The notes: generated by a model from the letters alone, not told the origin. DNA of 64,000 nucleotides from Bacteroidota bacterium (GCA_021324735.1 JAJPIO010000009.1:450510-514509); one strand, 5' to 3'; shown: positions 8,749-30,344, counted from the stretch's first letter. Made by a program: numbers and translations.

Positions 8749-10188
8749 TTGGTTCGTGTAAGATTCGCTCCTTCTCCCACTGGGTACGTCCATGTCGGTT
8801 CGCTGCGTACCGCGTTATACTGTTACCTTTTTGCCCGGCGTCATAGCGGTGTAAATATTCTCCGAATAGAAGATACCGATCGCACACGCTATGTTGAAGG
8901 CGCTGTTGAGAATCTGCTTCGAACCATGGAGTGGGCCGGGATCGGCTTTGATGAAGGCCCGATCGAAGGTGGTGCGTGCGGACCCTACGTTCAATCCGAA
9001 CGCACCGAATTATATCGCGAGCACGCTAACCAGCTCATTGCAAACGGACATGCCTATGTCTGTTTCTGCACACCCGAGCGATTAGATACCGTTCGCAAAT
9101 CGCAGCAAGCTGCCGGCATTCCACCTATGTACGATCGGCATTGCCGTAATCTTTCCAAGGAAGAGGTAGATAGCAGGGTTGCTGCCGGAGAGCCGCATGT
9201 TGTTCGCCTGCGCGTACCCATTGGTGAAATGGTCCGCTTTCATGATATGATCCGCGATGACGTGGAATTCGATTCGCGCACGATCGACGATCAGGTGCTT
9301 TTGAAGTCCGATGGATTTCCGACCTATCATCTTGCAAATATCGTCGACGATCACTATATGCAAGTGACGCATGTAATTCGCGGTGAAGAATGGCTATCTT
9401 CGACGCCAAAACATGTTTTGCTCTATCAGGCATTTGGCTGGGAGCCGCCGAAGTTTGCACACCTGCCGTTACTACTGAATGCGGATCGTTCAAAACTCTC
9501 GAAGCGGCAGGGCGATGTGGCAGTAGAAGATTATAGGGACAAAGGCTATCTTCCGCAGGCCCTTATCAATTTCGTTGCTTTGCTTGGCTGGAATCCAAGC
9601 GCGACGGAAGAGATATTCTCGATGGACGAGCTTATCCGCCAGTTCGATCTCGAGCGAGTAAATAAAGCCGGTGCGGTATTCAACCGGGAAAAGCTCGATT
9701 GGATGAATGGCGAGTACATCCGCAAGATGACTCCGGAAGAATTATTGCCGCTTGTTCGTCCGCTTCTGGAAAAACGCAATTTTGTTGCGAGTGATGAGTA
9801 TGTATGCTCTGTCATCAAGCTCATGCAGGAGCGCGTCCGTACGCTGTGGGATTTCGTTGATTTTGCAAGCTACTTCTATATTACGCCTGACTTCACAACG
9901 GCGGATGAAAAATATAAGTCGAAGCACTGGACCCCGCAGGCAAAAGAACATCTCGGTGCGTTGCTTCCTAAATTAGAATCACTCGAGACCTGGAATCATG
10001 ACTCGATCGAGGCAGCTGTTCGCGAATATGCGGAAGCGAATGGTATGGGTGCGGGAAAGCTTATTCACCCGATTCGCCTGGCAGTAACGGGACGAGGTAT
10101 GGGACCGGGACTCTTTGAACTACTTGCTGTGCTTGGCAAGCAGGAGTGTGTTACACGCATTCAGCACGCACTGACATCGTTAGCGTGA
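8749..10188 (+). CDS. gltX: Glutamate--tRNA ligase
   Basis: (TTG start) VRVRFAPSPTGYVHVGSLRTALYCYLFARRH matches the class I HIGH region as HVGS. The KLSKRQGD KMSKS-like motif is present. Length is 479 aa. Confidence 0.9.
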   Translation: MVRVRFAPSPTGYVHVGSLRTALYCYLFARRHSGVNILRIEDTDRTRYVEGAVENLLRTMEWAGIGFDEGPIEGGACGPYVQSERTELYREHANQLIANGHAYVCFCTPERLDTVRKSQQAAGIPPMYDRHCRNLSKEEVDSRVAAGEPHVVRLRVPIGEMVRFHDMIRDDVEFDSRTIDDQVLLKSDGFPTYHLANIVDDHYMQVTHVIRGEEWLSSTPKHVLLYQAFGWEPPKFAHLPLLLNADRSKLSKRQGDVAVEDYRDKGYLPQALINFVALLGWNPSATEEIFSMDELIRQFDLERVNKAGAVFNREKLDWMNGEYIRKMTPEELLPLVRPLLEKRNFVASDEYVCSVIKLMQERVRTLWDFVDFASYFYITPDFTTADEKYKSKHWTPQAKEHLGALLPKLESLETWNHDSIEAAVREYAEANGMGAGKLIHPIRLAVTGRGMGPGLFELLAVLGKQECVTRIQHALTSLA

Positions 10189-17927: not shown

Positions 17928-19106
17928 ATGAGAGTATCGTATATCCTTGTTCTTCGTCCGTTATTAAGATTAAGTCTTTATAGCACCCTGGTCTTTATTG
18001 TACCTTCGCAAACGGTTCGTGCACAATCCTCAGAAGATTCGATTCCATCTACATCTCTTCAAAACTTTCTTGATAAAACCCATATCGGCGGGTATGGAGA
18101 GATCACATACAAAGCTCCGAATGAAGGCGATGTCCCTCGATTAGATATACCGCGTTTCGTAATTTATCTCGATCATTATTTCTCCGATAAATGGGCAATG
18201 AAATCCGAGACGGAGATCGAGCACGTTAAACTCGAACGTGGTGAGGGCGGAGAGATCGGTCTCGAGCAAGCATTTTTAGATTACCACGCCAATTCACATA
18301 TTGGGTGGCGGACCGGATTGCTTCTTATTCCGATGGGTATTATCAATCAAACCCACGAGCCGAACACGTTCTATAGTGTGGAACGACCACAGTTCGACGA
18401 GCAGGTAATTCCGACGACCTGGCGTGAGATCGGAACCGGTGTGTATGGTGATCTCAGCGAAGGCCTGAAATATCAATTATATGTAACAGAAGGTCTAAAG
18501 ACGCAAGAGATAACCTCCGAAGGACTTGATGGCGGGAAGCAGGAGGGGTCTGCCGGAGAAGAAACATCGGATTTCATGGCGGGTAGTGATGCTTCACATC
18601 CCGCGCTCTCGGCGAAACTCGAAGTATTGCCGTTTGCGGGGTTGCGGATTGGTGCATCCACATATATTGAGCCTGGTTATACCCACGATATATCACGATC
18701 ATTTTTCATGAGCGTTCTGGACGCACGATATGAACATGGGCCACTCCATATTCGAGGCGAAGGAGGTGTTATCAACACGGGAGATGCCTCGGATTTTCCG
18801 CATGTACCAACAGGTGCTCGCGGAGGTTATGTTGAAGCCGCCTATAATGTGATGCCATTATTTTCGTCTGCGGAATCAGAATTGCTTCCGTTCGTGAGAG
18901 TGGAAAGAATAGAATTTTCGTCGCGAAGCGACACAACCGAAGCCAATTTTAGCACCGATCGTGACATTGACCGAAATACGATCACTGCAGGCCTGGCATT
19001 TAAGCCCCTCGATAATATTATTTTGAAAGCCGACTATCGGGTCACGAAAATCGAAGGAGAGCTTGATTATCGTCAATTTAGTTTAGGACTCGGATTTGCT
19101 TATTAA
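17928..19106 (+). CDS. Putative outer-membrane beta-barrel protein
   Basis: N-terminal signal-like region, alternating amphipathic beta-strand pattern, and a C-terminal ...GLGFAY aromatic terminus typical of OMP barrels. No named family was recognised. Confidence 0.45.
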   Translation: MRVSYILVLRPLLRLSLYSTLVFIVPSQTVRAQSSEDSIPSTSLQNFLDKTHIGGYGEITYKAPNEGDVPRLDIPRFVIYLDHYFSDKWAMKSETEIEHVKLERGEGGEIGLEQAFLDYHANSHIGWRTGLLLIPMGIINQTHEPNTFYSVERPQFDEQVIPTTWREIGTGVYGDLSEGLKYQLYVTEGLKTQEITSEGLDGGKQEGSAGEETSDFMAGSDASHPALSAKLEVLPFAGLRIGASTYIEPGYTHDISRSFFMSVLDARYEHGPLHIRGEGGVINTGDASDFPHVPTGARGGYVEAAYNVMPLFSSAESELLPFVRVERIEFSSRSDTTEANFSTDRDIDRNTITAGLAFKPLDNIILKADYRVTKIEGELDYRQFSLGLGFAY

Positions 19107-19110
19107 TCGA

Positions 19111-19650
19111 ATGCAGAGACTAATTATCGTTTGCCTCTTGGTAGGCTTTCCAGTATTGGCCAAGGCGCAGTCTATTGCGCAAAAGGCTGACGCTGCAATG
19201 CACAGAGTTTTTGGCGAGCAAGCAGTACTGACGAAGGAGACTCTTCCCATTGATCCACCAATGCGTTCAGCGGTCCAGAAGCGCTCGGAAGAAGAGGTCG
19301 GTGATAAAGTCATTGTGCATAAAGCGTTGAAAGACGGCAAGATAATCGGCTACGGCATCGTCGATGACGTTCGAGGCAAAGCTCAGCCCATTACCTATAT
19401 TACGTTGTTTCATCCTGATGGCAAAATTGCGGATGTAGAAGTTCTTGTTTATCGCGAGCCGTATGGTGGTGAAGTTGCCTATGAATCATTTCGCAAGCAA
19501 TTTCGAGGAAAGAGCTCGAACTCTCAGCTTCGTGTAGGCCATGATATACAAAACGTTGCCGGCGCTACGATCTCGAGCAAGGCGATCACATATGGAGCAA
19601 AAAAAATAGCCGTTCTCTTCGACGAGCTTAGGAAGGCCGGCAAATTATGA
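19111..19650 (+). CDS. FMN-binding domain protein (extracytoplasmic, NqrC/RnfG/NosR-like FMN_bind)
   Basis: Signal peptide MQRLIIVCLLVGFPVLAKAQ. ...ITYITLFHPDGKIADVEV and ...ATISSKAIT match the FMN_bind domain, including the flavinylated Thr/Ser context (GATISS). The start at 19111 avoids overlap with the upstream gene. Confidence 0.7.
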   Translation: MQRLIIVCLLVGFPVLAKAQSIAQKADAAMHRVFGEQAVLTKETLPIDPPMRSAVQKRSEEEVGDKVIVHKALKDGKIIGYGIVDDVRGKAQPITYITLFHPDGKIADVEVLVYREPYGGEVAYESFRKQFRGKSSNSQLRVGHDIQNVAGATISSKAITYGAKKIAVLFDELRKAGKL

Positions 19651-20249
19651 GAGAAGCACGAACACTGCCGCTCCTTCGCAATCTACCCAAAGAAGCGCGC
19701 CTGTTTGCTGTTCTCATTATGACAGTGCTCGGCATTGGCTACGCTCATGCGCTCGCTTATGTCTATCAAACGACACGAATCGTACCTAAAGGTATAGAAG
19801 AGCGCTATCGTGGTACCGAGACTATTCAAAGTGATACATCACAGGCGGTTTTATCCAGTGAAGAGGCGGAGGATTCTTCGAACACCGCAGCCGTAACGCC
19901 CGAAGTTAAAACCATAACCGGTGAGATACAATACCAGAAGTCATTAGCAGAAATGCTGAATATTATTCACACGCATATTCTAACGATGACCTTTATCTTT
20001 GCTTTATCCGGGTTCTTAACATTGATGACAGATTCCATTTCCACACGTCTTCGAAAGTTTGTTATTATCGAGCCATTCATCGGTATTATTGTCACCTTTG
20101 CAGGACTATGGCTTATGCGATACGTTCATCCAGCTTTTAGCTGGCTCGTTAGTCTTTCTGGAACAGTGATGGCGCTTGCATTTGCTGGGCAATGTGTCGC
20201 GCTATTTAAAGAAGTTCGTCAGGCGCGGAAAGTGGGAGGTGTGCAATGA
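19647..20249 (+). CDS. Hypothetical integral membrane protein, 4-5 TM
   Basis: Hydrophobic helices LFAVLIMTVLGIGYAHALAYV, ILTMTFIFALSGFLTLM, FIGIIVTFAGLWLM and LVSLSGTVMALAFAG. It overlaps the upstream FMN-binding gene and the downstream apbE gene by 4 bp each. Confidence 0.5.
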   Translation: MREARTLPLLRNLPKEARLFAVLIMTVLGIGYAHALAYVYQTTRIVPKGIEERYRGTETIQSDTSQAVLSSEEAEDSSNTAAVTPEVKTITGEIQYQKSLAEMLNIIHTHILTMTFIFALSGFLTLMTDSISTRLRKFVIIEPFIGIIVTFAGLWLMRYVHPAFSWLVSLSGTVMALAFAGQCVALFKEVRQARKVGGVQ

Positions 20250-21229
20250 ATCGGAGGCTCTTTTTAAAGCGAGCGTTTCAGTCATCTGGTATTGTAGTCA
20301 TGCTTCCTGCAGCTAAAAGCCTTGGAGCGATCGAACATGCACGTAAGGCCGGTTATTATGAGCATACGATCCTTGCCATGGGGACTACCGCTCGGCTTGG
20401 TGTATATGCTCGAGGCGAGGAAGCAGCCAACGAAGTCATTACTGCTTGCTTCGAGGAGTTAAAACGGATCGAATCGCTTCTCACCATTTTTAATCCTTCG
20501 AGTGAGATCTCGAAATTGAATTCAAACGCTGGGGGCGGATTTCTCTTCTGTTCTGCTGATACTGTTGCGATCCTTGTGGCAGCTAAACAATATGCATCGC
20601 TTACTGACGGTGCGTTCGAAGCGACCGTCGAGCCACTAATGCGGTTATGGGGATTCCGAAACGATAACAATGTGCTTTCTCAGCTTCCCTCTGATATAGA
20701 AGTTGCAGATGCATTACGCTTTATCGGCAGCGATCATATTGAGTTACGTGATTCCAGTGCTCGTCTTACCATCGCCGGAGCAAAACTCGATCTTGGTGGA
20801 ATAGCAGTTGGTTATTCCCTCGATAAGATGGTTGCCATGTTACATAACGCCGGTATCGAAGATGCTTTTATCGATATTTCCGGCGACATGTTTGCGCTCG
20901 GTAAGGAGCGCGGTAAAAGGGGATGGGATGTTGCCATTCCAGACCCACAAGATACCGCTAAACTAATTTATCATGCCACCATCTCGAACGAAGCGCTCGC
21001 GACCAGCGGTAACTACGAATCCTTTGTTGTATATCAAGCTCAGCGGTTCGGTCATATTATGGACCCACACCAAGGGAGATCTTCGGTGCGGATGCTATCA
21101 TCTACAGCGATCGCTAAGACAGGCCTGGATGCCGATGCATTATCGACAGCCTCTTTTGTGTCTGGAAAGGCATACGGGACATCACGGCTTATAGGGGTCA
21201 ACAAAATTGGCACTCTAACTGTGACGTAG
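20246..21229 (+). CDS. apbE: FAD:protein FMN transferase (ApbE family)
   Basis: Tat/Sec-like leader MNRRLFLKRAFQSSGIVVMLPAAKSLG. ...DLGGIAVGYSLDKM and ...ISGDMFALG are ApbE motifs. Length is 327 aa. Confidence 0.85.
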   Translation: MNRRLFLKRAFQSSGIVVMLPAAKSLGAIEHARKAGYYEHTILAMGTTARLGVYARGEEAANEVITACFEELKRIESLLTIFNPSSEISKLNSNAGGGFLFCSADTVAILVAAKQYASLTDGAFEATVEPLMRLWGFRNDNNVLSQLPSDIEVADALRFIGSDHIELRDSSARLTIAGAKLDLGGIAVGYSLDKMVAMLHNAGIEDAFIDISGDMFALGKERGKRGWDVAIPDPQDTAKLIYHATISNEALATSGNYESFVVYQAQRFGHIMDPHQGRSSVRMLSSTAIAKTGLDADALSTASFVSGKAYGTSRLIGVNKIGTLTVT

Positions 21230-21273: not shown

Positions 21274-21705
21274 ATGCCAGAGCCCTCGCCTAACTGCGTG
21301 TTTTGTGATATCGTGCGTGGCACGAATCCGCACGAGATCGTTTATGAGGACGCCGAGTATCTCGGCTTTCTCGATCGTTATCCGCTTAATCCCGGCCATA
21401 CCCAGTTTATCCCGAAACGTCATTACCGGTGGGTGTGGGACATGGAAAAAGCAGACCTGGGCTTTATGTTTATGAAGGCGCGCCGAGTTGCAAAGGCGCT
21501 GCAAACAGTGTTCAAGACGGATTGGGTTATCGCTGATACCGGCGGCATCGGCGTGCCGCATGCGCACATTCATCTCGTGCCACGCTTCGAAGATGATGGC
21601 CATGGCGAGCTACCCGATCCGAAAATACTTCGGGAAATTCCGGACAGTGAGATGGCGGAATTCGCCCGTAAGATCAGATTGGAAATCGAGCGTACCCCGC
21701 AATAG
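21274..21705 (+). CDS. HIT (histidine triad) family nucleotide hydrolase/transferase
   Basis: CVFCDIV...FLDRYPLNPGHTQFIPKRH and HAHIHLVPRF (HxHxHxx). Length is 143 aa. Confidence 0.85.
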   Translation: MPEPSPNCVFCDIVRGTNPHEIVYEDAEYLGFLDRYPLNPGHTQFIPKRHYRWVWDMEKADLGFMFMKARRVAKALQTVFKTDWVIADTGGIGVPHAHIHLVPRFEDDGHGELPDPKILREIPDSEMAEFARKIRLEIERTPQ

Positions 21706-22695
21706 ATGCTAATTAGTCAGACCCCGCTTCGGATCAGCCTCGGTGGAGGAGGAACCGATCTTCGAGCCTATTATAAAGACTCCGATGGTTTCGTCGTCTC
21801 GACCGCCATCGATAAGTACATGTACGTGCTTATCAAAGAGCGATTCGATTCGAAGATCTATCTCAATTATGCGGCCCGCAAAGAGATTGTCGACGATATC
21901 TCCGAGATCCAGCACGAGCTGGTTCGCGAGGCTGGACTGGTTACCGGTCTTCGCAATGGATTTGAATTAGCAACGTTCGCGGATATTCCTTCGGAAGGCT
22001 CCGGACTGGGGTCTTCCAGCAGCCTGACCGTCGGTCTGCTAAACGCCATGCACACCTTTCGTGGCAGGCAGGTCACGCACGATCAACTCGCTGAAGAAGC
22101 CTGCATGATCGAGATCGACATTCTCAAAAAACCCATTGGCAAGCAGGACCAGTACATTGCGGCTCACGGAGGACTTACGACCATCACCTTTCATGGTTCG
22201 GAGCGCGTAACAACGGAACGCCTCGAACTCGACGAACGCGAGCGCCACGACCTCGGCGGTCGTTTCATGCTCTTCTTTACCAATGTTACACGTCAGGCGT
22301 CGTCGATCCTCACAGAGCAGCAGGAAAAAACTACCATCAATCGGAAGCACTTGCTCGCGATCCACGGACTTGGCAAGAAGATCGAAGACGCAATCCGCTC
22401 GCGCAAGTTCGATACGATCGGGGAAATTCTGGATGAGAACTGGACACTGAAGAAAAATCTCGCATCCGGAATTACCACACCGCAGATCGACGACATGTAC
22501 AAACGCGCTCGCGCTGCCGGTGCCGTGGGCGGAAAAGTCGCCGGTGCAGGCGGCGGCGGCTTCTTGCTCCTCTACGTCAAACCGGAACATCAGGCCAAGG
22601 TGCGCGAAGCTCTTTCAGAATATCGCCGGATGCCGATCATGCTCGATAATTTCGGGGCCACGATCATTTTCAATCAACGGCGGTACCGTTGGTAA
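21706..22695 (+). CDS. GHMP-family sugar kinase (D-glycero-D-manno-heptose 7-phosphate kinase-like)
   Basis: TPLRISLGGGGTDL and IPSEGSGLGSSSSLTVGLLNAM (GHMP motifs). KVAGAGGGGFLLLY is near the C-terminus. Its start lies 1 nt after the HIT stop, so the two are translationally coupled. Confidence 0.8.
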   Translation: MLISQTPLRISLGGGGTDLRAYYKDSDGFVVSTAIDKYMYVLIKERFDSKIYLNYAARKEIVDDISEIQHELVREAGLVTGLRNGFELATFADIPSEGSGLGSSSSLTVGLLNAMHTFRGRQVTHDQLAEEACMIEIDILKKPIGKQDQYIAAHGGLTTITFHGSERVTTERLELDERERHDLGGRFMLFFTNVTRQASSILTEQQEKTTINRKHLLAIHGLGKKIEDAIRSRKFDTIGEILDENWTLKKNLASGITTPQIDDMYKRARAAGAVGGKVAGAGGGGFLLLYVKPEHQAKVREALSEYRRMPIMLDNFGATIIFNQRRYRW

Positions 22696-23334
22696 ATGCT
22701 CGAAATTTACTTTCTTCGTCACGGTCAAACCGAATTCAGTCGCGACAACAAATTTTGCGGCTCTGCCACGGACGCTCAGCTCACTCCGCAGGGCCGCGCA
22801 ATGGGCGAGGCCTTCGCGGAATTTTATCGAGATACCCAATGGCGCGCGATCTACTCGAGTCCGCTCGAGCGCACTCGGATCACCGCCAACACGATCGCAT
22901 CCCGCTTAAACCAACAGCCGATCGTTCGTGACGGCCTGACCGAGATTGGCTACGGCAAATGGGAAGCGCGGACCGTGGATGAGGTCGACCGGTTATTCCA
23001 CGACGACTATCTTCGCTGGACGGCCGACCCGGCGTGGTATCCTCCGACCGAAGGCGAATCCGCAATTTCCGTTTCCACGCGCGCGCTCGAAGTCGTTCAG
23101 GAAATCCGCGATGATTGCCACGAAGGCAAGGTCCTCGTCGTCTCTCACAAGGCCACCATTCGCATCGTACTCTGCGCCCTGTTGGGCATCGATGTCGGGC
23201 GGTTTCGGTACCGGCTCGGATGCCCGGTGAGCTCCGTTAGCGTCGTCAGCTTTGCCGGACACGGCCCGCTCCTCGAAGTCCTGGCGGATCGGTCGCATCT
23301 TCCACAGGAGTTGCTCCAGCTCGAGGGCACCTGA
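22696..23334 (+). CDS. Histidine phosphatase (phosphoglycerate-mutase-like) family protein
   Basis: MLEIYFLRHGQTEFS is the RHG catalytic motif. YSSPLERTRITA and ...VVSHKATIR (catalytic His) are present. It is coupled to the upstream kinase. Confidence 0.85.
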   Translation: MLEIYFLRHGQTEFSRDNKFCGSATDAQLTPQGRAMGEAFAEFYRDTQWRAIYSSPLERTRITANTIASRLNQQPIVRDGLTEIGYGKWEARTVDEVDRLFHDDYLRWTADPAWYPPTEGESAISVSTRALEVVQEIRDDCHEGKVLVVSHKATIRIVLCALLGIDVGRFRYRLGCPVSSVSVVSFAGHGPLLEVLADRSHLPQELLQLEGT

Positions 23335-23667
23335 GGGATGGTGCTCGAGCCCCGGATTCCGCTGCGCTAATAAATCCCTAGATTCTGGCGTACGTACATA
23401 CGGCAGAACCTACTCAACTTTCAACGAACGATGGGGAAGCGACGATCTATCTTCAATGTGGTAGGGATCACGCACGAAGTCTAATCTCTAGATGCCTGTA
23501 CGGACAGAGGCGTGTTTGCCTGGTAGGATCGGGACCGCTTGGTTGCTTTTTTTTCGTGTCTGAGGGGCAACCAGACCCAATCTAATGTACGCAATAAGTA
23601 TATTTTTGTTTCAACTAAATGATATTCTATAGGACAAAAATCCCACTGGATTCGCTAGCCATCTATG

Positions 23668-24194
23668 TTATGCTGGTGGCCGAAATCCTATGGGACGGCG
23701 TGGCCGCTCGTCGGCAGCGATCATCTTTTTGATCGCGTCGAATACAACTTGGAAGTTCTTATCGTACTTTCTTTCCAGCTCCTCCAGTTTGCGAGCCAGT
23801 TCACGATGGGCCGTTAGCCACGTTCGCATTTGGACGAACGTTCGCATGATCGCGATATTGACATCGATAGCCTGCTTGCTGTTGAGAATTCCGGAGAGCA
23901 TGGCGATACCTTGCTCTGTGAAGGCAAAGGGAAGGTATTTCGAATGCCCCCGCGCTTTAAGGTCACAGATTGTGATCTTAAACGGTGAGACTCCTCCACA
24001 GTCAACTCGAACATAAAGTCCTATGGGAAGCGCCGCAAATGCCGCCGAACAGATTGTTTCAGGACCCGAGTTGAAACGCCGTATTATCGTGCGAGATCGG
24101 CGTCTAAAATGACGCGCTCTCCTCGAATGAAGTAAATGTGAGAGGCAATGACCTCCTCGCGAAGCGCTACGGCATGGGTAGATTGGTTTTGCAT
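23668..24194 (-). pseudogene. ORF6N (KilA-N-like) domain protein pseudogene with two in-frame stops and a +/-1 frameshift
   Basis: Hand translation of the minus strand gives MQNQSTHAVALREEVIASHIYFIRGERVILDADLAR*YGVSTRVLKQSVRRHLRRFP*DFMFELTVEESHRLRSQSVTLKRGG, then a frame switch to KYLPFAFTEQGIAMLSGILNSKQAIDVNIAIMRTFVQMRTWLTAHRELARKLEELERKYDKNFQVVFDAIKKMI. This is collinear with the Bacteroidota ORF6N-protein pattern as recalled (...IRG..V.LD.DLAELYGV.T..LNQAV.RN..RFPEDFMF.LT.EE...LRSQ......GGRRYLPYAFTEQGVAMLS.VL.S..AI.VNI.IMRAF). TAA (24084-24086) replaces the Leu codon and TAG (24021-24023) replaces the Glu codon. The frameshift is at the C5/G5 run at 23947-23951. Confidence 0.65.
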
Positions 24195-24602
24195 AGAGGA
24201 CCGAGTTTGAAAACCTCTGCAAAATTACGAAAATGTCCCTCGATTCACAGCAAGCAGAACCAGTGTTCGGACATGGCCAGCACATCCCAGCGAGCGAAGG
24301 CAAGGCCCCGAACACCATCTGGGGCCGTCCTCGAACGGCTGTTTGATCTCGTGGAGGGGAAGCAGCAGACGAGGGTGGAGGAGCGGTAGGGACGTGCCTT
24401 CGGCGCGTCCACTGTGGGGATTAGATAACGTCAGTCAACAAGATGAATTGGCGGGCAGCAGGATTTGTAAATCGCAAGGAGCGTTATGATTGAGCACGTG
24501 ACAGCATTTCGGCATTCCCCACGCTGGACGTACCGGAGGTACGTCCCTACCGACTTAGGACCAAGCCACATTAAGACGGATTAATCGTCGGAATTGTGCG
24601 CA

Positions 24603-25520
24603 TTATGTAGTACTTTGAGGAGGCTGTTTCTTTAATGGGACAGTTGCTTGTACGCGGTCATAGAGTAGCTCTTTTAAATTAGCCGGGTTAGAGTAGAAAA
24701 TGTGGCTATAAGCTTTTGTATCAAAATGGAGCTTTTCTTTTTCCTCGATCTTGCAACACCAAACCACTGGTATTCCAAGACCGAGTGCAAAGCCCGCCTC
24801 GAAATAGCAACCACCTCGCTGACCTGTGAAATCAGCTACGACCAAGGAGCTGCGTCGTATTTCAGCCATGATTTTATCATTGATATTATCATTGTGCTGA
24901 GCAGCCTTTAGCATCATGGGGCTATATCCTGCTCTTTCGAGTGCAGGCTTAATACCGTTCGCCCAAACATCATCCATACTATCATCAAACCACATCGCCA
25001 CAAACGCTTGGTTTCCGAGCGGCGTTGTTTCCCGCAAATGTACTGCTCTGGCCCAACCGCTAAGTGTTGGCAAGAACTGTTCAACATAGCCACTCCCTCC
25101 CTCCAGTTCGAGGTAGCCCAACTCCGCCGCCTTATTCAGCCAATACCCCAACTCGTTCGGATCACAAGCGACCCAGATGGGGTATAGTATTTCTTCATCA
25201 AGAACGAACCGCTGATCCATCCGCTCAAGGCCGTCATAAAGGGTTCTAATGACGTTATCAATGGCTTCGAACAAGTTCGATGGCCTTCGAACCATACTTG
25301 CGATTTGCTCCTGCCCCTCAGTCTGTATTTCTATCCTTCGGCCGTTGTCCCATGCGAGGCGAGTCGCTGCGCTTAAAAGATAGCCAGCAACTTTTAATTC
25401 GCTGTGATATGCTTCTGGCGTGATGACGTACTGTCCGCATGTTCGGCACTTCATGCCGTAGGCCTCTCTCCCGCTAATCTCGCCACCCTCGGCTTCTTTT
25501 CCACAAAGTTTACAATTCAT
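24603..25520 (-). CDS. Gene B of a candidate conflict/defense operon: N-terminal zinc ribbon plus C-terminal nucleoside 2-deoxyribosyltransferase-like (SLOG/NDT-fold) domain protein
   Basis: 305 aa. The N-terminus MNCKLCGKEAEGG...KCRTCGQYV carries CxxC...CxxC. The C-terminal roughly 130 aa (AFVAMWFDDS...IMAEIRRSSLVVADFTGQRGGCYFEAGFALGLGIPVVW) match the NDT/DNPH1-fold pattern: hydrophobic beta1 before a Gly-rich turn, then D..G.....E.G.A.A.GKPV with the catalytic Glu. The central roughly 100 aa were not recognised. GC is about 42-45 %, lower than flanking DNA. Confidence 0.55.
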   Translation of the reverse strand: MNCKLCGKEAEGGEISGREAYGMKCRTCGQYVITPEAYHSELKVAGYLLSAATRLAWDNGRRIEIQTEGQEQIASMVRRPSNLFEAIDNVIRTLYDGLERMDQRFVLDEEILYPIWVACDPNELGYWLNKAAELGYLELEGGSGYVEQFLPTLSGWARAVHLRETTPLGNQAFVAMWFDDSMDDVWANGIKPALERAGYSPMMLKAAQHNDNINDKIMAEIRRSSLVVADFTGQRGGCYFEAGFALGLGIPVVWCCKIEEKEKLHFDTKAYSHIFYSNPANLKELLYDRVQATVPLKKQPPQSTT

Positions 25521-25578
25521 TTTACGTCAATCGTTAAGATAGGGTGAATCTCAATTCCGCTTTCGTCGTGCCGCCAAC

Positions 25579-26580
25579 CTACACGGTTTCCTGGGCGCTT
25601 GGCTCGGGTTGCTGATTGCCTTGTAAACGCTGAACATATCTGAGCTTCTTCTCAATTTCGCAATAAGCATTACGAATTCTAGTTTCTTCGCAACCTAGTT
25701 CGATTAGCGCATCAATCGTCGCCTGTAATCGGTTTTCCGCCGATTGGTGCTCGATTATACTCGCCCAAAAGTGATGTGGCGTTGCTGAAGCAAGTACCGA
25801 TTCATAATGCAAGAAAGTAAATGCTTCGGCTGACTCAGCTAACTCCTCGACTACTTTTAGGCACCGTTCCGCACATTCCGTTTTCAGACGAGAATTGAAA
25901 TCCCCAAAGACCGTCCATTCTCTTGCTAGGATGCGTCTCTGCTCTTCCTGAAACCATGTGTGAAAGCCCTCGATCTTAGCCTGATACTCGGTGAAGATGT
26001 CTTTCACGTTCAAGGGTTGATTTTGCTTCTGTAGAAAGCTCCGCGCAGATGCCTTCCAGGCGTAGCCCTCAAGAAGCTTTTTTGGAATGAGTTGCACCTG
26101 GATAATCAGACCGTCAGGGTTAAAAATATAATTAGTATTTAATTCAGGCGGTCGATAATGCACAAAGTAATCTCGAAGATCATGCATGAATCGTATCAAT
26201 TCATCTTTCGCCAGCTCATCCTTTCGTCGCTCGTAATCCGGCATCAACGTTGACCCATGCTCACGATATAGGTTCCTTGTGTGATCAGCTAAAGTTTTGA
26301 CAGCAGCTAAGTAATTGAAAATCAATAATACAATATTTTCTCTAAAAGCCAGTCCCCAAACTTTTTGCTGATTTGTGTGAAATTCCAGAAATCTCTGAGG
26401 GTTGGTGAAGTCTTCGATTGCCTTTTGCAGCATGAAATAATTTCTATCGACAAGCTTATATAAAATGTTAAGTCGAAGGCTGTTTTCAACACTCGCGACC
26501 TCTTTGCTTGCCATTCTTTCCCTATAAAGCGCCGACACCCCTTCAGTGTGCAAGATTGTTTGTCCTTCGTGAATATTCAT
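25579..26580 (-). CDS. Gene A of the candidate conflict/defense operon: helical hypothetical protein (possible HEPN/Abi-like)
   Basis: 333 aa, predicted mostly alpha-helical. It contains TRNLYREHG (an Rx5H arrangement, compatible with a HEPN motif) and many conserved-looking aromatics. GC is about 35-40 %, clearly lower than neighbouring housekeeping genes at 55-60 %. It is first in a two-gene minus-strand operon with gene B across a 58-bp gap. No family assignment is possible without a search. Confidence 0.45.
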   Translation of the reverse strand: MNIHEGQTILHTEGVSALYRERMASKEVASVENSLRLNILYKLVDRNYFMLQKAIEDFTNPQRFLEFHTNQQKVWGLAFRENIVLLIFNYLAAVKTLADHTRNLYREHGSTLMPDYERRKDELAKDELIRFMHDLRDYFVHYRPPELNTNYIFNPDGLIIQVQLIPKKLLEGYAWKASARSFLQKQNQPLNVKDIFTEYQAKIEGFHTWFQEEQRRILAREWTVFGDFNSRLKTECAERCLKVVEELAESAEAFTFLHYESVLASATPHHFWASIIEHQSAENRLQATIDALIELGCEETRIRNAYCEIEKKLRYVQRLQGNQQPEPSAQETV

Positions 26581-26961
26581 GCTCGGCCAGTCAAGCGCTA
26601 CTTATTGCTTTCGCACAAGTGTGCGGGATACATTGAATGAAATCACCTTCAGGGTCGAAGAGTTGGATGATCGCTCACCCTTGAGGAACATTATATAAAC
26701 CGGTCGGCAAATTTCGGAGTTCGCACAATTATTAGAGTAGGTATGGAGTAGTTGCCGCCAATACAAAGACGCCTCCGATCGAGACAGCCTCATTTCGTAG
26801 GTCCTATTCGAATTTGCAATAGGTGTTTGCTGGGTTTGTCGCGGAAGATGCAGCGTTCAGTTTGCCATGTCCGCCCCCCGGGATGCCATCTGTTTTGCCC
26901 TAAAGCGGAATGAACTCAATTGCATCGAAGATGAGTTAGGCGAACCAGTACGATCCCCACA

Positions 26962-27552
26962 TTGCCGCCCACGATATTCAAGATGACCTTTCAGGAATAC
27001 CTTAGTTATTTCAATCAGTCGCTAACTTCGCTTAATACGACCGAGATCGGTCAATTTCTCGATCTGCTGGTCGATGCCTATGAGAACGACCGTACCGTGT
27101 TCGTCATCGGAAACGGTGGCAGCGCGGCCAATGCGTCGCATTTTGCCAATGACCTGGCGAAAGGTACGCTCCGCTCGATGGACCAGCCGAAGCGCCTACG
27201 GGCATTATCGCTGACCGATAACGTCGCGCTCATGACCGCGTATGGTAATGATGAAGGCTACGCGACGATCTTCGAGCAGCAATTGCGGACCTATGCTCGT
27301 CCCGGCGATATTGTCGTTGCGATCTCGGGCTCGGGTAATAGCCCGAATGTGATCTCCGCGATCGAGTGGGCCAATGCGAACGGTCTTCACACCGTAGGGG
27401 TCACCGGTTTTGCAGGCGGCAAACTCAAGCAGATCGCCTCGACGACGGTCCACGTCCCGCTCAATGATATGTGCACCTCCGAAAGCGTGCACTCGGTCAT
27501 TTTCCATTATGTCGCGATCGAATTACCGAAGCGACTGTATAAAGAATCGTAG
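26962..27552 (+). CDS. gmhA: SIS-domain phosphoheptose isomerase (D-sedoheptulose 7-phosphate isomerase, GmhA-like)
   Basis: VFVIGNGGSAANASHFANDLAKG and DIVVAISGSGNSPNVISA are SIS-domain motifs. Length is about 190 aa. An alternative start MTFQEYL lies at 26983. Confidence 0.8.
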   Translation: MPPTIFKMTFQEYLSYFNQSLTSLNTTEIGQFLDLLVDAYENDRTVFVIGNGGSAANASHFANDLAKGTLRSMDQPKRLRALSLTDNVALMTAYGNDEGYATIFEQQLRTYARPGDIVVAISGSGNSPNVISAIEWANANGLHTVGVTGFAGGKLKQIASTTVHVPLNDMCTSESVHSVIFHYVAIELPKRLYKES

Positions 27553-27720
27553 CCGTGACCTTTAGGTCACGGCGAATTGAGGATGCGTCTGTAGCCGTAA
27601 CATTTATGTTACGGCGAATTGAGGATGTGCACCATGTTATTGAAACCATGTCCATGGCCGGCGGTGCGTTTCGCCGTGACCTGAAGGTCACGGCTACGAA
27701 TCACGGCTACGAAATCACGG
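27549..27720. repeat. Cluster 1 of REP-like self-complementary 22-bp hairpin repeats (three copies) with conserved flanks
   Basis: GCCGTGACCTTTAGGTCACGGC is at 27551-27572, GCCGTAACATTTATGTTACGGC at 27593-27614 and GCCGTGACCTGAAGGTCACGGC at 27672-27693. Each has 9-10-bp perfect arms. The conserved flanking string cgaattgaggatg.g..ccatgtt.ttgaaaccatgt.catggc.g.cggtgcgtttc and the trailing ggctacgaa(a)tcacg motif (tandem) are shared with cluster 2. Confidence 0.8.
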
Positions 27721-27726
27721 AATCTA

Positions 27727-27939
27727 CTATCTCCCGTTATTTGCTGCTAAAGGATTGGAATAGCTGAAGGAGCGTAGGTCAGCGCGGGAGGATGCGTGTT
27801 CCATCGTAATGGAGATAAGATTTCCCTGATGGTCGTACTCCGCAAGGGTGTTCTCATCAAGATCGCGCGTGCTTTCAGCATCCGCTGATGCGAATTCTAC
27901 AAGCAACGTGTCGGTGTCTTGAAAGTATGTGACTTTCAT
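27727..27939 (-). CDS. DUF2283-family protein (putative antitoxin of the DUF4258/DUF2283 pair)
   Basis: 70 aa. MKVTYFQDTDTLLVEFASADAESTRDLDENTLAEYDHQGNLISITMEHAS is the canonical DUF2283 pattern (MKITYD.E.D.LYI.L). Confidence 0.7.
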   Translation of the reverse strand: MKVTYFQDTDTLLVEFASADAESTRDLDENTLAEYDHQGNLISITMEHASSRADLRSFSYSNPLAANNGR

Positions 27940-27958
27940 CGCTTAGAGGAGATATGGG

Positions 27959-28201
27959 TCAATCTGGCTTGCGGAATGACCGATCGAAAAAGGCATTATG
28001 TACGGTCTCTCCATCAGGCAGGATAACAACCCTAAGCCATTTATTGTTTGCCTCGGAAATCCTGGCCCATCGTCGAATTCGGCCGTCCGATTGAATGGTT
28101 TCCCATTCTGGATTCATCATAACTCGCTGAATCCATTCAACTTCGATCCAATCGCGATCGGGAGCCGCATGTCGGTACTTGAAATATTCAGTGAATTTCA
28201 C
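27959..28201 (-). CDS. DUF4258-family protein (putative RelE/ParE-fold toxin)
   Basis: 80 aa. ...ETIQSDGRIRRWARISEANNKWLRVVILPDGETVHNAFFDRSF matches the DUF4258 C-terminal HNAFFDR motif. It lies immediately upstream of the DUF2283 gene on the same strand with a 19-bp gap. Confidence 0.7.
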   Translation of the reverse strand: MKFTEYFKYRHAAPDRDWIEVEWIQRVMMNPEWETIQSDGRIRRWARISEANNKWLRVVILPDGETVHNAFFDRSFRKPD

Positions 28202-28217
28202 GATGCCTTCCTAATTG

Positions 28218-28380
28218 TAGCCGTGACATTTATGTCACGGCGAGTTGACGGATGCGTACCATGTTGTTGAAACCATGTTCATGGCGGTCGGTGCGTTTCG
28301 CCGTGACCTAAAGGTCACGGCTACGAAATCACGTGGTATGTTTCGCCGTAACCTAAAGGTTACGGCTACGAAATCACGCT
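28218..28380. repeat. Cluster 2 of REP-like self-complementary 22-bp hairpin repeats (three copies)
   Basis: GCCGTGACATTTATGTCACGGC is at 28220-28241, GCCGTGACCTAAAGGTCACGGC at 28300-28321 and GCCGTAACCTAAAGGTTACGGC at 28345-28366. The inter-hairpin sequence is about 85 % identical to cluster 1, in the same orientation. Clusters 1 and 2 bracket the TA pair. Confidence 0.8.
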
Positions 28381-29245
28381 ACCTAAGGGCTGATTCGAGT
28401 GCAGTCCGAGCGTCCGTCTTTTCGTCGCGATATTTAATAATGATCGGGGAGTAGAGGGAGAGTCCCTGCTCTCGGGCGAACTCCGATTTCTTTCCTACGA
28501 AGCGAGAGCCAGCTACTATAACCGCACCCTCGGGGACAATCAATGGCTCATTCTCATTTGCTCGAGAAATTACTTTGCCGTTCACCAGATCGTAGATCGG
28601 CGTCGAGCCGGTAAGGACCACACCGGATGCCAATACTGCTCGCTTCTTAATAACACATCCCTCGTAAACTCCGGTATTGCCGCCGAGCAGTACATCATCT
28701 TCGATAATGACCGGCAGCGCACCCGCTGGTTCGAGAACGCCACCGATCTGTGCAGCGGCGCTGATATGAACGCGTTCACCTACCTGTGCACAGCTTCCCA
28801 CGAGCGCATGGGAATCGATAAGGGTACCGGAGCCAACATACGAGCCGATGTTTACGTAGGAGGGCGGCATCATGATGACACCCGCCGCCAGATGGGCTCC
28901 ATCGCGTACAGTGCTTCCGCCCGGCACGATGCGAACGTTATCCTCAACGAAAAAGCCATGTAAGGGCACCGTGTCTTTATCGAAGAAATGCCATCCTTGC
29001 GGAGCTTTCAGTTCTTCGAGCCGGCCAAGTCTGAATCCCAGCAGAATACCTTGCTTGATCCACGCATTTACTCGCCAGCCGCTCGTAGCAGAGGAGTCCG
29101 GTTCAGCGGATCGGATCTCCGCCTTATTCAGTGCCAGTCGTAGGCGAAGGACTGCACTTACTGCAGAATCGCGGTGCAAATTGATCTCTTCCGTCGTGAG
29201 CGGAAACAGCTTTTCAATAGTTTGGCGGAGTTCGTCGAGGTTCAT
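28379..29245 (-). CDS. dapD: 2,3,4,5-tetrahydropyridine-2,6-dicarboxylate N-succinyltransferase
   Basis: The start is at MNLDELRQTIEKLF (ATG 29245); the 40-aa ORF-track extension is rejected because it spans a terminator. Left-handed beta-helix hexapeptide repeats (GSYVGSGTLIDSHALVGSCAQVGERVHISAAAQIGGVLEP...) and the N-terminal helical domain match the DapD pattern. Confidence 0.85.
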   Translation of the reverse strand: MNLDELRQTIEKLFPLTTEEINLHRDSAVSAVLRLRLALNKAEIRSAEPDSSATSGWRVNAWIKQGILLGFRLGRLEELKAPQGWHFFDKDTVPLHGFFVEDNVRIVPGGSTVRDGAHLAAGVIMMPPSYVNIGSYVGSGTLIDSHALVGSCAQVGERVHISAAAQIGGVLEPAGALPVIIEDDVLLGGNTGVYEGCVIKKRAVLASGVVLTGSTPIYDLVNGKVISRANENEPLIVPEGAVIVAGSRFVGKKSEFAREQGLSLYSPIIIKYRDEKTDARTALESALR

Positions 29246-29246
29246 A

Positions 29247-29280
29247 AAAAAGAAGCCCCTCTTCCAAACGGAAGAGGGGT
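29247..29280 (-). terminator. Rho-independent terminator downstream of the 29301 lipoprotein gene
   Basis: CCCCTCTTCC-AAAC-GGAAGAGGGG is a perfect 10-bp stem. On the minus strand it is followed by CTTCTTTTTT. Confidence 0.7.
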
Positions 29281-29300
29281 GTAAATTACGATGACAATTA

Positions 29301-30344
29301 TTACTTAACTCGGAAGCTCTGAACCGATTTTTCGAGCGCCGGTCGGAACGCACCTTCCAGCTCATTCGGCCAGGACACGGTAATGCGATAGACCTTCTGG
29401 CCGGACATCACGAAGTAGGCACGCGCGGTCGCGCCGGCCGATCCGTAGCTGATCACTTTTGCCGGTTGGCCGCCCAATGTTGCACTTTGTGCTGTCGCGC
29501 CGTGATACGTTTTCTTGGCGTTCTCGTCCACATATTTGTTTAGGTCGATGCCTTTATCAACCGTATTAGCATCCACGCGGACCATAGCATCGGCGCGTTC
29601 GCCTTTTATCTCGACGCCGCCACCCATCGGCGATGCGTGGAAATTATCGGGATATTGAATGCTAAAACCGCTGCCGTTGAAGGTGGAGAACGTCTGCGAC
29701 GGCTTCATCTGCTCGATCATAGCATTGAGCGAAGCGCTGTCGATCTTGCCGTTTGTTACTTTAAGTACGAACGCCGGCTGCACTGATTTTTCCGCCGCAT
29801 CGAAGATCTGCGCGTACTTCTTCATGCGGTTCTGGCCAAAGGTAGCTGCATCGAAGTAGGTAACGAGCGAGTCCTTATCGGCAAAGATTCTGTAGCCTGT
29901 CAACCCGTCTTCATCGCCCTGGATCGAGTAGCTGATCTTAATGGCCGGCAATCCGCCCAGCGTAGTATTTTCCGGATTGGAAAACGTTACGTTATCCATG
30001 CTCTGCTTGAAGTCATTCGCGACTTTCTCTTTGGTCGAATGCTCCATCGCACCGACGCCGATGCGAGCGCCGTAATCACCTTCGGTAAATTTCTGAAAAC
30101 GGGTTTCAGTCGATGGGGTCGAGTAATAAAAGGTATGTTCACCCGGTACCGACTCGGCTGCCCACGCCTTCGGAGCTTTGAAGCTGAAGCGATAGACAAG
30201 GTCCTTATACGTTACCATTTCGCCGGGCTGGACGGGCGACATATCTTCTTCCTTCTTACCGCAGCCGGCAATTATAGCGATGAGAGCGAGGGATACCAGT
30301 GAGGTAGTAACCCATGACTTCATTCGAAATTCGTGCGTCTTCAT
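29301..30344 (-). CDS. Lipoprotein of unknown function, downstream partner of the MCE/MlaD-like gene
   Basis: The signal peptide and lipobox are LVSLALIAIIAGCGKK. It is a 347-aa soluble domain with no recognised family. It lies 2 bp downstream of the MlaD-like gene. Confidence 0.5.
   Translation of the reverse strand: MKTHEFRMKSWVTTSLVSLALIAIIAGCGKKEEDMSPVQPGEMVTYKDLVYRFSFKAPKAWAAESVPGEHTFYYSTPSTETRFQKFTEGDYGARIGVGAMEHSTKEKVANDFKQSMDNVTFSNPENTTLGGLPAIKISYSIQGDEDGLTGYRIFADKDSLVTYFDAATFGQNRMKKYAQIFDAAEKSVQPAFVLKVTNGKIDSASLNAMIEQMKPSQTFSTFNGSGFSIQYPDNFHASPMGGGVEIKGERADAMVRVDANTVDKGIDLNKYVDENAKKTYHGATAQSATLGGQPAKVISYGSAGATARAYFVMSGQKVYRITVSWPNELEGAFRPALEKSVQSFRVK

Follow-up and report, generated by a model that had tools for sequence, protein, structure and literature searches.

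Defence islands and variable hot spots, among them integrase-independent islets, are lineage-specific insertions between conserved linked genes. Related genomes carry different contents at such a site, and the cargo is of the defence and toxin-antitoxin (TA) type, accompanied by decayed mobile-element genes. Classical genomic islands are likewise absent from relatives at a conserved site and deviate in base composition, and they are marked by an integrase, a tRNA gene and flanking direct repeats. Here we describe a locus in a 64,000-nucleotide stretch of DNA (hereafter the window; GCA_021324735.1 JAJPIO010000009.1:450510-514509) from an uncultured soil bacterium of the Kapaibacteria lineage, in which accessory DNA breaks a conserved cluster of genes for a HIT protein, a GHMP kinase, a histidine phosphatase and a GmhA-like isomerase. 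The locus resembles defence islands in each of the features listed above, but it is small (3.6 kb), contains no complete system recognized by PADLOC and has no empty counterpart at the strain level. Unlike classical genomic islands, it has no integrase, tRNA gene or flanking direct repeats.

Open reading frames (ORFs) at 17.9-34.3 kb of the window were scanned for protein families, those between the conserved flanks against Pfam, NCBIfam, PADLOC and PHROGs. A first-pass annotation of the window had described positions 23335-28380 as one accessory island of about 5 kb with gmhA inside it. All four classes of accessory content that it listed were found at their places: an ORF-free segment, an ORF6N pseudogene, two low-GC genes encoding proteins of 305 and 333 amino acids (aa), and a TA pair between two clusters of repetitive extragenic palindromic (REP)-like sequences. 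The single island itself did not stand. It gave way to two modules, an insertion of 3.6 kb on the left side of gmhA, which is itself native, and a separate REP-flanked TA cassette on the right side. We consider it likely that these are two independent accessory pieces, situated where a conserved block of genes has its variable end.

Comparison with related loci

The comparison was based on 160 loci, which were obtained by scanning genomes with the kinase and metagenomes with GmhA (individual loci are given by number, L001 and so on). The close relatives of the window are metagenome-assembled genomes of the Kapaibacteria/Ignavibacteriota, whose kinases show 84-91% amino acid identity to that of the window. 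The HIT–GHMP–phosphatase–GmhA order was unbroken in all 20 relatives showing both flanking genes, and the spacing between the phosphatase gene and gmhA was 39-421 bp in these genomes, compared with 3.65 kb in the window (23335-26982). The suggestion that foreign DNA had entered between functionally linked genes was thereby borne out. No relative shared the gene order of the island, homologues of the cargo genes being present at none of the 160 loci. In a neighbor-joining tree of the four concatenated proteins, the window was nested in an island-free clade as the sister of L002. Because the genes are contiguous in 20 of 20 relatives, the cargo is absent from all 160 loci and the window is nested, a gain in the window lineage is far more parsimonious than repeated loss.

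The opposite history, in which the segment is ancestral and was lost in the relatives, would require an independent loss in each of about 20 relatives over several clades. A related idea is that the segment belongs to the sugar pathway, with the N-glycosidase-like 305-aa protein acting on a nucleotide sugar; the NDT/DNPH1 fold of this protein (NDT, nucleoside deoxyribosyltransferase) does act on nucleotides, and its gene lies inside a nucleotide-sugar cluster. However, the cargo genes run antisense to those of the cluster, their GC by codon position is different and one of them is a pseudogene, and homologues of the 305-aa protein occur in defence-type and viral contexts and not in sugar clusters. 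Both versions are very improbable, and a gain of the segment in the window lineage is preferred.

Three states of the site between the phosphatase gene and gmhA were recognized: a gap of 39-106 bp with an AT-rich spacer, a gap of about 390 bp with a small conserved ORF, and the 3.6 kb of the window, in which neither type of native spacer is present. The ORF of the 390-bp spacer, which lies on the minus strand, encodes 55-65 aa (L004 11707-11904, with homologues in L001, L003, L081, L082, L084, L090 and L093), is 44-60% identical at the amino acid level between genomes and has no Pfam match.

The empty site that was sought in close relatives exists as the contiguous phosphatase–gmhA arrangement of 20 of 20 relatives, but none was found at the strain level. 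Genome and metagenome scans uncovered no relative nearer than about 90% amino acid identity. An exact-protein look-up placed the window organism on four contigs from three sources (JGI 3300027965, ENA ERZ27279670 and Logan SRR5579883). Three of the four were aligned; they were 99.98-99.99% identical to the window, and the island was present in all of them.

Borders and base composition of the insertion

The left non-coding part of the insertion (23335-23667; 333 bp) shows no similarity to the intergenic DNA of relatives. It had been described as an ORF-free, AT-rich segment of about 330 bp; no meaningful ORF was found in it, but it is AT-rich in its right third only (GC 0.516 at 23335-23559, 0.38 at 23560-23667 and 0.47 overall). 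The right non-coding part (26581-26900), which lies upstream of the 333-aa gene and from this position presumably holds its promoter, also shows no similarity to relatives. Neither part contained an Rfam RNA. About 80 bp upstream of gmhA are weakly colinear with the long-spacer relatives (weak match at 26900-26941), and the right border was set near 26900 because only these last 80 bp or so resemble relatives.

The isomerase gene gmhA is native and retains its own upstream region (26901-27552 with the gene; Pfam SIS_2, 4.6e-22), and its product is 84-91% identical to those of relatives at the amino acid level. Because the proteins of relatives begin with MTFEEY, translation probably starts from the ATG at 26983 (gene 26983-27552, plus strand).

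A search for short direct repeats at 23335-23660 and around 28380 had been suggested, and the comparison of the borders of the insertion gave nothing beyond chance. Between 23300-23720 and 26560-26990, the longest shared direct word was 8 nt, which is the mode of shuffled sequences, and the longest inverted word was 10 nt, inside the shuffle range. No target-site duplication or terminal inverted repeats beyond chance were detected at the borders. The family scans revealed no integrase or recombinase among the ORFs between the conserved flanks. There is no tRNA gene near the insertion, the only tRNA genes of the window being at 6.5-8.6 kb, and the island DNA had no match in phage and plasmid collections.

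The contigs of the short-read assembly Logan SRR5579883 (L216, L163 and L212) break at 23467/23503, with 35 bp unassembled, and at the REP copy at 27672-27700. These breaks are not evidence of an alternative junction, because the sequence is identical to the window up to each of them. The second is explained by the repeat; the first could be due to low coverage or to heterogeneity at the left edge of the island.

The base composition of the cargo differs from that of its surroundings. The window has a mean GC of 0.50. The four cluster genes have a GC of 0.54-0.60 and a third-position GC (GC3) of 0.60-0.70, compared with 0.48 (GC3 0.48) for the 305-aa gene and 0.44 (GC3 0.45) for the 333-aa gene. 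In the sliding-window analysis, the 1.5-kb window at 25501-27000 had a GC z score of -2.3 and a tetranucleotide z score of +2.3. The cargo is thus indeed low in GC relative to the flanking cluster genes, as first described, but the dip is modest, and comparable windows exist elsewhere in the stretch. The compositional break is real against the flanks and not striking overall.

Cargo of the insertion

Three genes, all antisense to the cluster, make up the cargo. The first-pass reading of the leftmost as an ORF6N pseudogene was upheld by three-frame reconstruction. This KilA-N-like or antirepressor-like gene (23668-24194, minus strand; Pfam ORF6N, 7.5e-5) is of full length only over three frames, with in-frame stops TAA at 24086-24084 and TAG at 24023-24021 and one frameshift near 23950. 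It also matched PADLOC PDC-S05, a candidate family (4.9e-24), and a PHROG anti-repressor (1.2e-9).

Type II retron effectors consist of an NDT-like domain joined to a winged helix, and the NDT-like domain is reportedly indispensable to their defence by abortive infection, in which adenine derivatives are depleted (PMC7736814; bioRxiv 10.1101/2023.08.16.553469). The 305-aa protein (24603-25520, minus strand) shares these two parts with the retron effectors Ec86/Eco1 and Sen2. It differs from the described effectors (PMC7736814) in that the winged helix comes first and the NDT-like domain last, and in having an additional N-terminal zinc ribbon. Its layout is an N-terminal CxxC...CxxC zinc ribbon, a winged-helix-like middle part and a C-terminal NDT/DNPH1/TIR-like domain, and the AlphaFold2 (AF2) model (pLDDT 87) contains a zinc ribbon, a helical/winged-helix region and a Rossmann-like domain. 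Among solved structures, the best Foldseek matches of the Rossmann-like domain were the CMP N-glycosidase BcmB, NDT, DNPH1 and the TIR domain of SARM1 (probability 1.0, TMt 0.5-0.72). Residues from about 170 to 295 share with DNPH1/Rcl, NDTs, BcmB/MilB and TIR NADases both the fold and an acidic residue in a D..G...FE.G-type motif; sequence identity to these enzymes is 13-19%, and the fused sensor-like domains and a Pfam score below threshold set the protein apart from them.

The family of the 305-aa protein has a minimum of 1365 members, with a length of about 300 aa each. The cysteines of CxxC…CxxCG and a C-terminal block, QAFVAMWF…ADFTGQRGGVYFEAGFA.GLG.PVIW…HFDTRQY, are conserved, and E241 in YFEAG is invariant among 35 sequences of the family. 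Judged by this motif rather than by superposition, E241 would be the counterpart of the catalytic glutamate. Many homologues carry a precomputed PF05014 label. The protein itself has a domain-level match to the PADLOC model "Effector TIR" (1.6e-13) and matches phrog_16139 (3.6e-39), and homologues, mostly of full length, were present in 34 viral contigs. The neighbourhoods of homologues contain PIN, HicA, TIR, HNH, DpnII, DUF4062 and helicase genes with no fixed partner. The 305-aa protein may be a self-contained sensor-effector, which would, once triggered, cleave a nucleotide or NAD+ at its N-glycosidic bond.

In L165 (2287-5927), a homologue of the 305-aa gene lies 27 bp downstream of a gene whose 895-aa product weakly matches guanylate-cyclase and HEAT families, and is followed by a DUF4062 gene. 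This may be a cyclase-effector arrangement. DUF4062 was recently reported as a TIR-like NADase (bioRxiv 10.64898/2026.05.01.722283).

Between the pseudogene and the 305-aa gene, a 169-nt hairpin-forming element (24384-24552) has 37-nt inverted arms, 84% complementary, around a 95-nt spacer. Each arm is itself palindromic (GGACGTxCC..GGxACGTCC). The predicted folding energy is -101.8 kcal/mol on the plus strand (z = -6.8) and -79.4 kcal/mol on the minus strand (z = -3.6). No further copies were found in the window or the fetched loci, and there was no Rfam match. The element may be a second REPIN-like or MITE-like (miniature inverted-repeat transposable element) sequence or a structured RNA. 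A retron formed by the NDT-like gene and this nearby hairpin was considered and rejected on account of the reversed domain order and the lack of a reverse transcriptase among the island genes; no Rfam retron RNA was found either.

The 333-aa protein (25579-26580, minus strand) belongs to an undescribed family. It had no Pfam, PADLOC or NCBIfam match, and members of its family hit no relevant Pfam or PADLOC family. A word-indexed search returned only the protein itself, as if it were an orphan; an exhaustive HMMER scan then revealed a large family with 1088 cluster representatives at E<=1e-3 (clusters at 50% identity). Seven residues (N47, N89, F131, R136, H141, W175 and W209) are invariant, H100 and R102 are nearly so, and H88 and D99 are invariant or near-invariant as well. 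The motifs HN..AS..DH.R and LR.Y..H fall within the overall signature N...HN...DH.R...LR.Y..H...W...W. The AF2 model (pLDDT 85.7) is a long helical bundle with one β-hairpin, for which no significant fold match was found in PDB or BFVD. The invariant R136-x4-H141, with a polar residue after the arginine, is like the R-x4-6-H motif of HEPN domains, but no HEPN domain appeared among the Pfam or PDB fold matches. An identity as a HEPN protein or a ClyA-type toxin was not adopted; although the motif gives a hint, no fold match reached significance (E >= 0.03, TM about 0.15).

Four other contexts of the 333-aa family were inspected, and the neighbours include SAVED, PemK, NYN, TIR-cyclase and DUF2283 genes. 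In three of the four, the family gene is followed by a variable gene on the same strand, one with a weak PIN-like match and two that are unknowns. One may speculate that the 333-aa family is the conserved part of a modular anti-phage system whose effectors, encoded downstream, can be exchanged, namely the N-glycosidase-like 305-aa protein here and PIN-like or unknown proteins elsewhere; we regard this as unlikely. A closely allied proposal, to which we likewise give a low probability, is that the two genes of the window form one two-gene anti-phage system, in which sensing or regulation would fall to the helical protein, as the conserved component, and the effector role to the NDT/TIR-like protein, with other effectors elsewhere. 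The two genes are on the same strand, 58 bp apart, and arrived together; with the NDT-like gene of the window included, four of five contexts have a variable gene downstream of the family gene on the same strand, and the strictly conserved polar residues of the 333-aa family suggest an active or binding site. However, only five contexts were examined in all, the pairing of the two families was seen in the window alone among them, and the 305-aa family is mostly stand-alone or accompanied by other neighbours. Some of the supposed pairs have gaps of 200-290 bp, and there is no PADLOC match.

Upstream of the 333-aa gene and on the same strand, a 63-aa ATG ORF (26602-26793, minus strand) ends 21 bp short of it; public annotations of the contigs of this organism do not include the ORF. 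It may be spurious or encode a small regulator.

The right side of gmhA and the TA cassette

REP and REPIN sequences of proteobacteria, associated with REP-associated tyrosine transposases (RAYTs), are intergenic repeats dispersed over related genomes, with a palindromic core of about 22 nt in a unit of about 28 nt and with inverted doublets around a conserved spacer. The repeats to the right of gmhA share this unit structure, the inverted doublets and the intergenic dispersal over related genomes; they differ in their Kapaibacteria host and in that the six copies in 64 kb are all at one locus. Their unit is GCCGTGACC-TTTA-GGTCACGGC with asymmetric flanks GTA…GAA. The six GTAGCCGTGACCTTTAGGTCACGGCGAA-like palindromes lie at 27549, 27591, 27670, 28217, 28297 and 28342, all within 27549-28369 and none elsewhere in the 64 kb, whereas none is expected by chance. 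The left cluster (27547-27719) consists of a solo REP (27549-27576) and an inverted doublet with a conserved spacer (27591-27697), and the right cluster (28217-28378) of an inverted doublet (28217-28324) and a solo REP (28342-28369). The layout is thus REP> [REP> spacer <REP] TA [REP> spacer <REP] <REP. The two doublets (27590-27700 and 28216-28327) share 90% identity over 112 nt and form direct repeats around the TA pair. Relatives carry related copies in other, unrelated intergenic regions (L004/L081, L005, L006, L013, L086 and L088), for example between tsf and pyrH in L004, and the palindromes of the window belong to a lineage-wide REP/REPIN-like family. In L005, L006 and L013, REP-like palindromes lie between the HIT and kinase genes (around 9907-9999), so that in these relatives the repeats invade the cluster itself.

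As the first-pass annotation had it, a predicted TA pair sits between the two hairpin clusters. Its upstream gene encodes an 80-aa protein (27959-28201, minus strand) with a DUF4258 match at an E-value of 0.015 only, and its downstream gene a DUF2283 protein (27727-27939, minus strand; Pfam, 9.9e-14). In gene order, gene sizes and conserved pairing on plasmids, the pair corresponds to DUF4258/DUF2283 modules, which are predicted type II TA systems, but the 80-aa protein falls below the Pfam threshold for DUF4258. Plasmid homologues of this protein in Rhodothermus and Picosynechococcus are 43-55% identical and encoded immediately upstream of DUF2283, and one of them is annotated as DUF4258. The exact TA protein was found only at the window locus in the four contigs carrying it (three places shown), and the cassette was accordingly rejected as a multi-copy element.

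It is doubtful that the REP-bracketed TA pair is a non-autonomous cassette whose doublets served as ends used in trans by a RAYT or an IS200/IS605-type transposase. The symmetric arrangement of the REPs around the pair, the near-identity of the doublets that flank it as direct repeats, the dispersal of the REP family in relatives and the location in a rearrangement hot spot are in line with such a transposition. However, the exact TA protein was seen at a single locus in four contigs, a second REP-flanked copy was not found, and no transposase was seen among the scanned ORFs (17.9-34.3 kb), no search for a RAYT having been made. Moreover, REP clusters commonly build up in intergenic DNA beside any gene. 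We prefer to regard the cassette as an accessory piece of its own, separate from the 3.6-kb insertion.

The next gene to the right, dapD (28379-29365, minus strand), has no counterpart beside gmhA in relatives. Synteny with relatives extends for more than 10 kb upstream of the cluster, and no gene downstream of their gmhA matches any gene of the 64-kb window. About ten different arrangements were seen to the right of gmhA among the relatives. In L082, a PemK/MazF toxin gene with a small upstream ORF occupies the exact position of the TA pair, and in L011 a PIN gene is found at a distance of 1.8 kb. A recurrent breakpoint that gathers small accessory modules thus lies at the right end of gmhA, which supports a hot spot better than a single-island picture. 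The earlier suggestion of a hotspot thus gained ground on both sides of gmhA, from the three states of the left site and from the varied right-side arrangements, including the PemK/MazF gene of L082.

Proposed origin of the locus

These observations suggest the following history. About 3.6 kb (23335 to about 26900) would have been gained in the window lineage between the phosphatase gene and gmhA, probably displacing the short native spacer. The likeliest routes are recombination via the conserved flanking genes or the decay of a larger mobile element, and site-specific integration is less likely. The decayed ORF6N gene may be a mark of mobile-element origin, and the surviving cargo would represent defence-island-like content. 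In the 305-aa protein, the zinc ribbon and the winged helix would sense or regulate, and the predicted nucleotide or NAD N-glycosidase would deplete a nucleotide pool on activation. The helical 333-aa gene lies just upstream, and we assign no function to it. The DUF4258/DUF2283-type pair would be the second piece, placed between inverted REP doublets at the right edge of gmhA, where the gene order is variable in almost every relative. In this account, the anatomy of the locus, its absence from relatives, the lesions of the pseudogene and the fold of the 305-aa protein are shown directly; how the DNA was acquired, its part in defence and the activity of the enzyme are inferred.

Several points weigh against this reading. 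All three aligned assemblies of the organism carry the island, so that there is no same-species empty site, and neither the timing nor the exact borders are fixed. Insertion of the TA pair is not demonstrable, because the right flank is non-syntenic in every relative. The composition of the island is only about two standard deviations from the window mean, and equally low windows lie at 16.7-18.2 kb and 62.5-64 kb. The match of the 305-aa protein to PF05014 (7e-6, 26.6 bits) is under the cut-off of 28.8 bits. Neither cargo gene is in a validated defence system, PADLOC found no complete anti-phage system, and the 305-aa and 333-aa families occurred together nowhere else in the other contexts sampled. 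A defence role is inferred as guilt by association from a handful of contexts.

The conserved gene cluster

The native left flank of the insertion is formed by the genes for the HIT protein (21274-21705), the HddA-like GHMP kinase (21706-22695) and the His_Phos_1 phosphatase (22696-23334), all on the plus strand and all with Pfam matches. They are colinear and conserved in L001-L013 and L081-L093. Their supposed translational coupling agrees with the junctions, TAGATG between HIT and kinase and TAAATG between kinase and phosphatase, where stop is followed by start with no spacer.

The pathway of GDP-D-glycero-alpha-D-manno-heptose employs GmhA, HddA, GmhB and HddC. The best NCBIfam match of the kinase is HddA (1.9e-48; 165.6 bits, cut-off 600), and that of the isomerase is phosphoheptose isomerase (5.8e-34; 117.6 bits, cut-off 276). 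Genes for an NTP_transferase and a GDP-mannose-dehydratase-like enzyme lie beside the orthologous kinase–isomerase pair in other phyla (L097 4825-8256; L014 9315-11550). A pathway like that of nucleoside-diphosphate heptoses, as proposed earlier, is consistent with these best matches and neighbours, but both scores are under the curated cut-offs. No HAD-type GmhB or HddC nucleotidyltransferase was found by Pfam in the cluster of the window, and the Kapaibacteria cluster instead has HIT and His_Phos_1 proteins at the places expected for HddC and GmhB. A HAD hydrolase gene follows gmhA in some relatives. The Kapaibacteria cluster may represent a non-canonical nucleotide-heptose route.

Upstream of the cluster, the window, L003, L004 and L011 have a set of FMN_bind, membrane protein and ApbE genes (19096-21229 in the window) that separates a porin-like gene from HIT. 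The set is missing in L002 and L082, where the porin-like gene directly precedes HIT, and in L009, where the porin is missing too. This set is a second presence/absence polymorphism in the neighbourhood of the cluster.

Conclusions

The locus is a clean, well-bounded case of accessory DNA breaking a conserved operon in the poorly studied, uncultured Kapaibacteria. As one more instance of a familiar phenomenon, it leaves current concepts unchanged, and its value is that of a list of leads rather than a discovery. The locus adds a REP/REPIN-like repeat family that lies outside the proteobacteria, and it flags two protein families, one of more than 1,300 members represented by the 305-aa protein and one of about 1,000 helical, unannotated members represented by the 333-aa protein, both of which recur in defence-type neighbourhoods.

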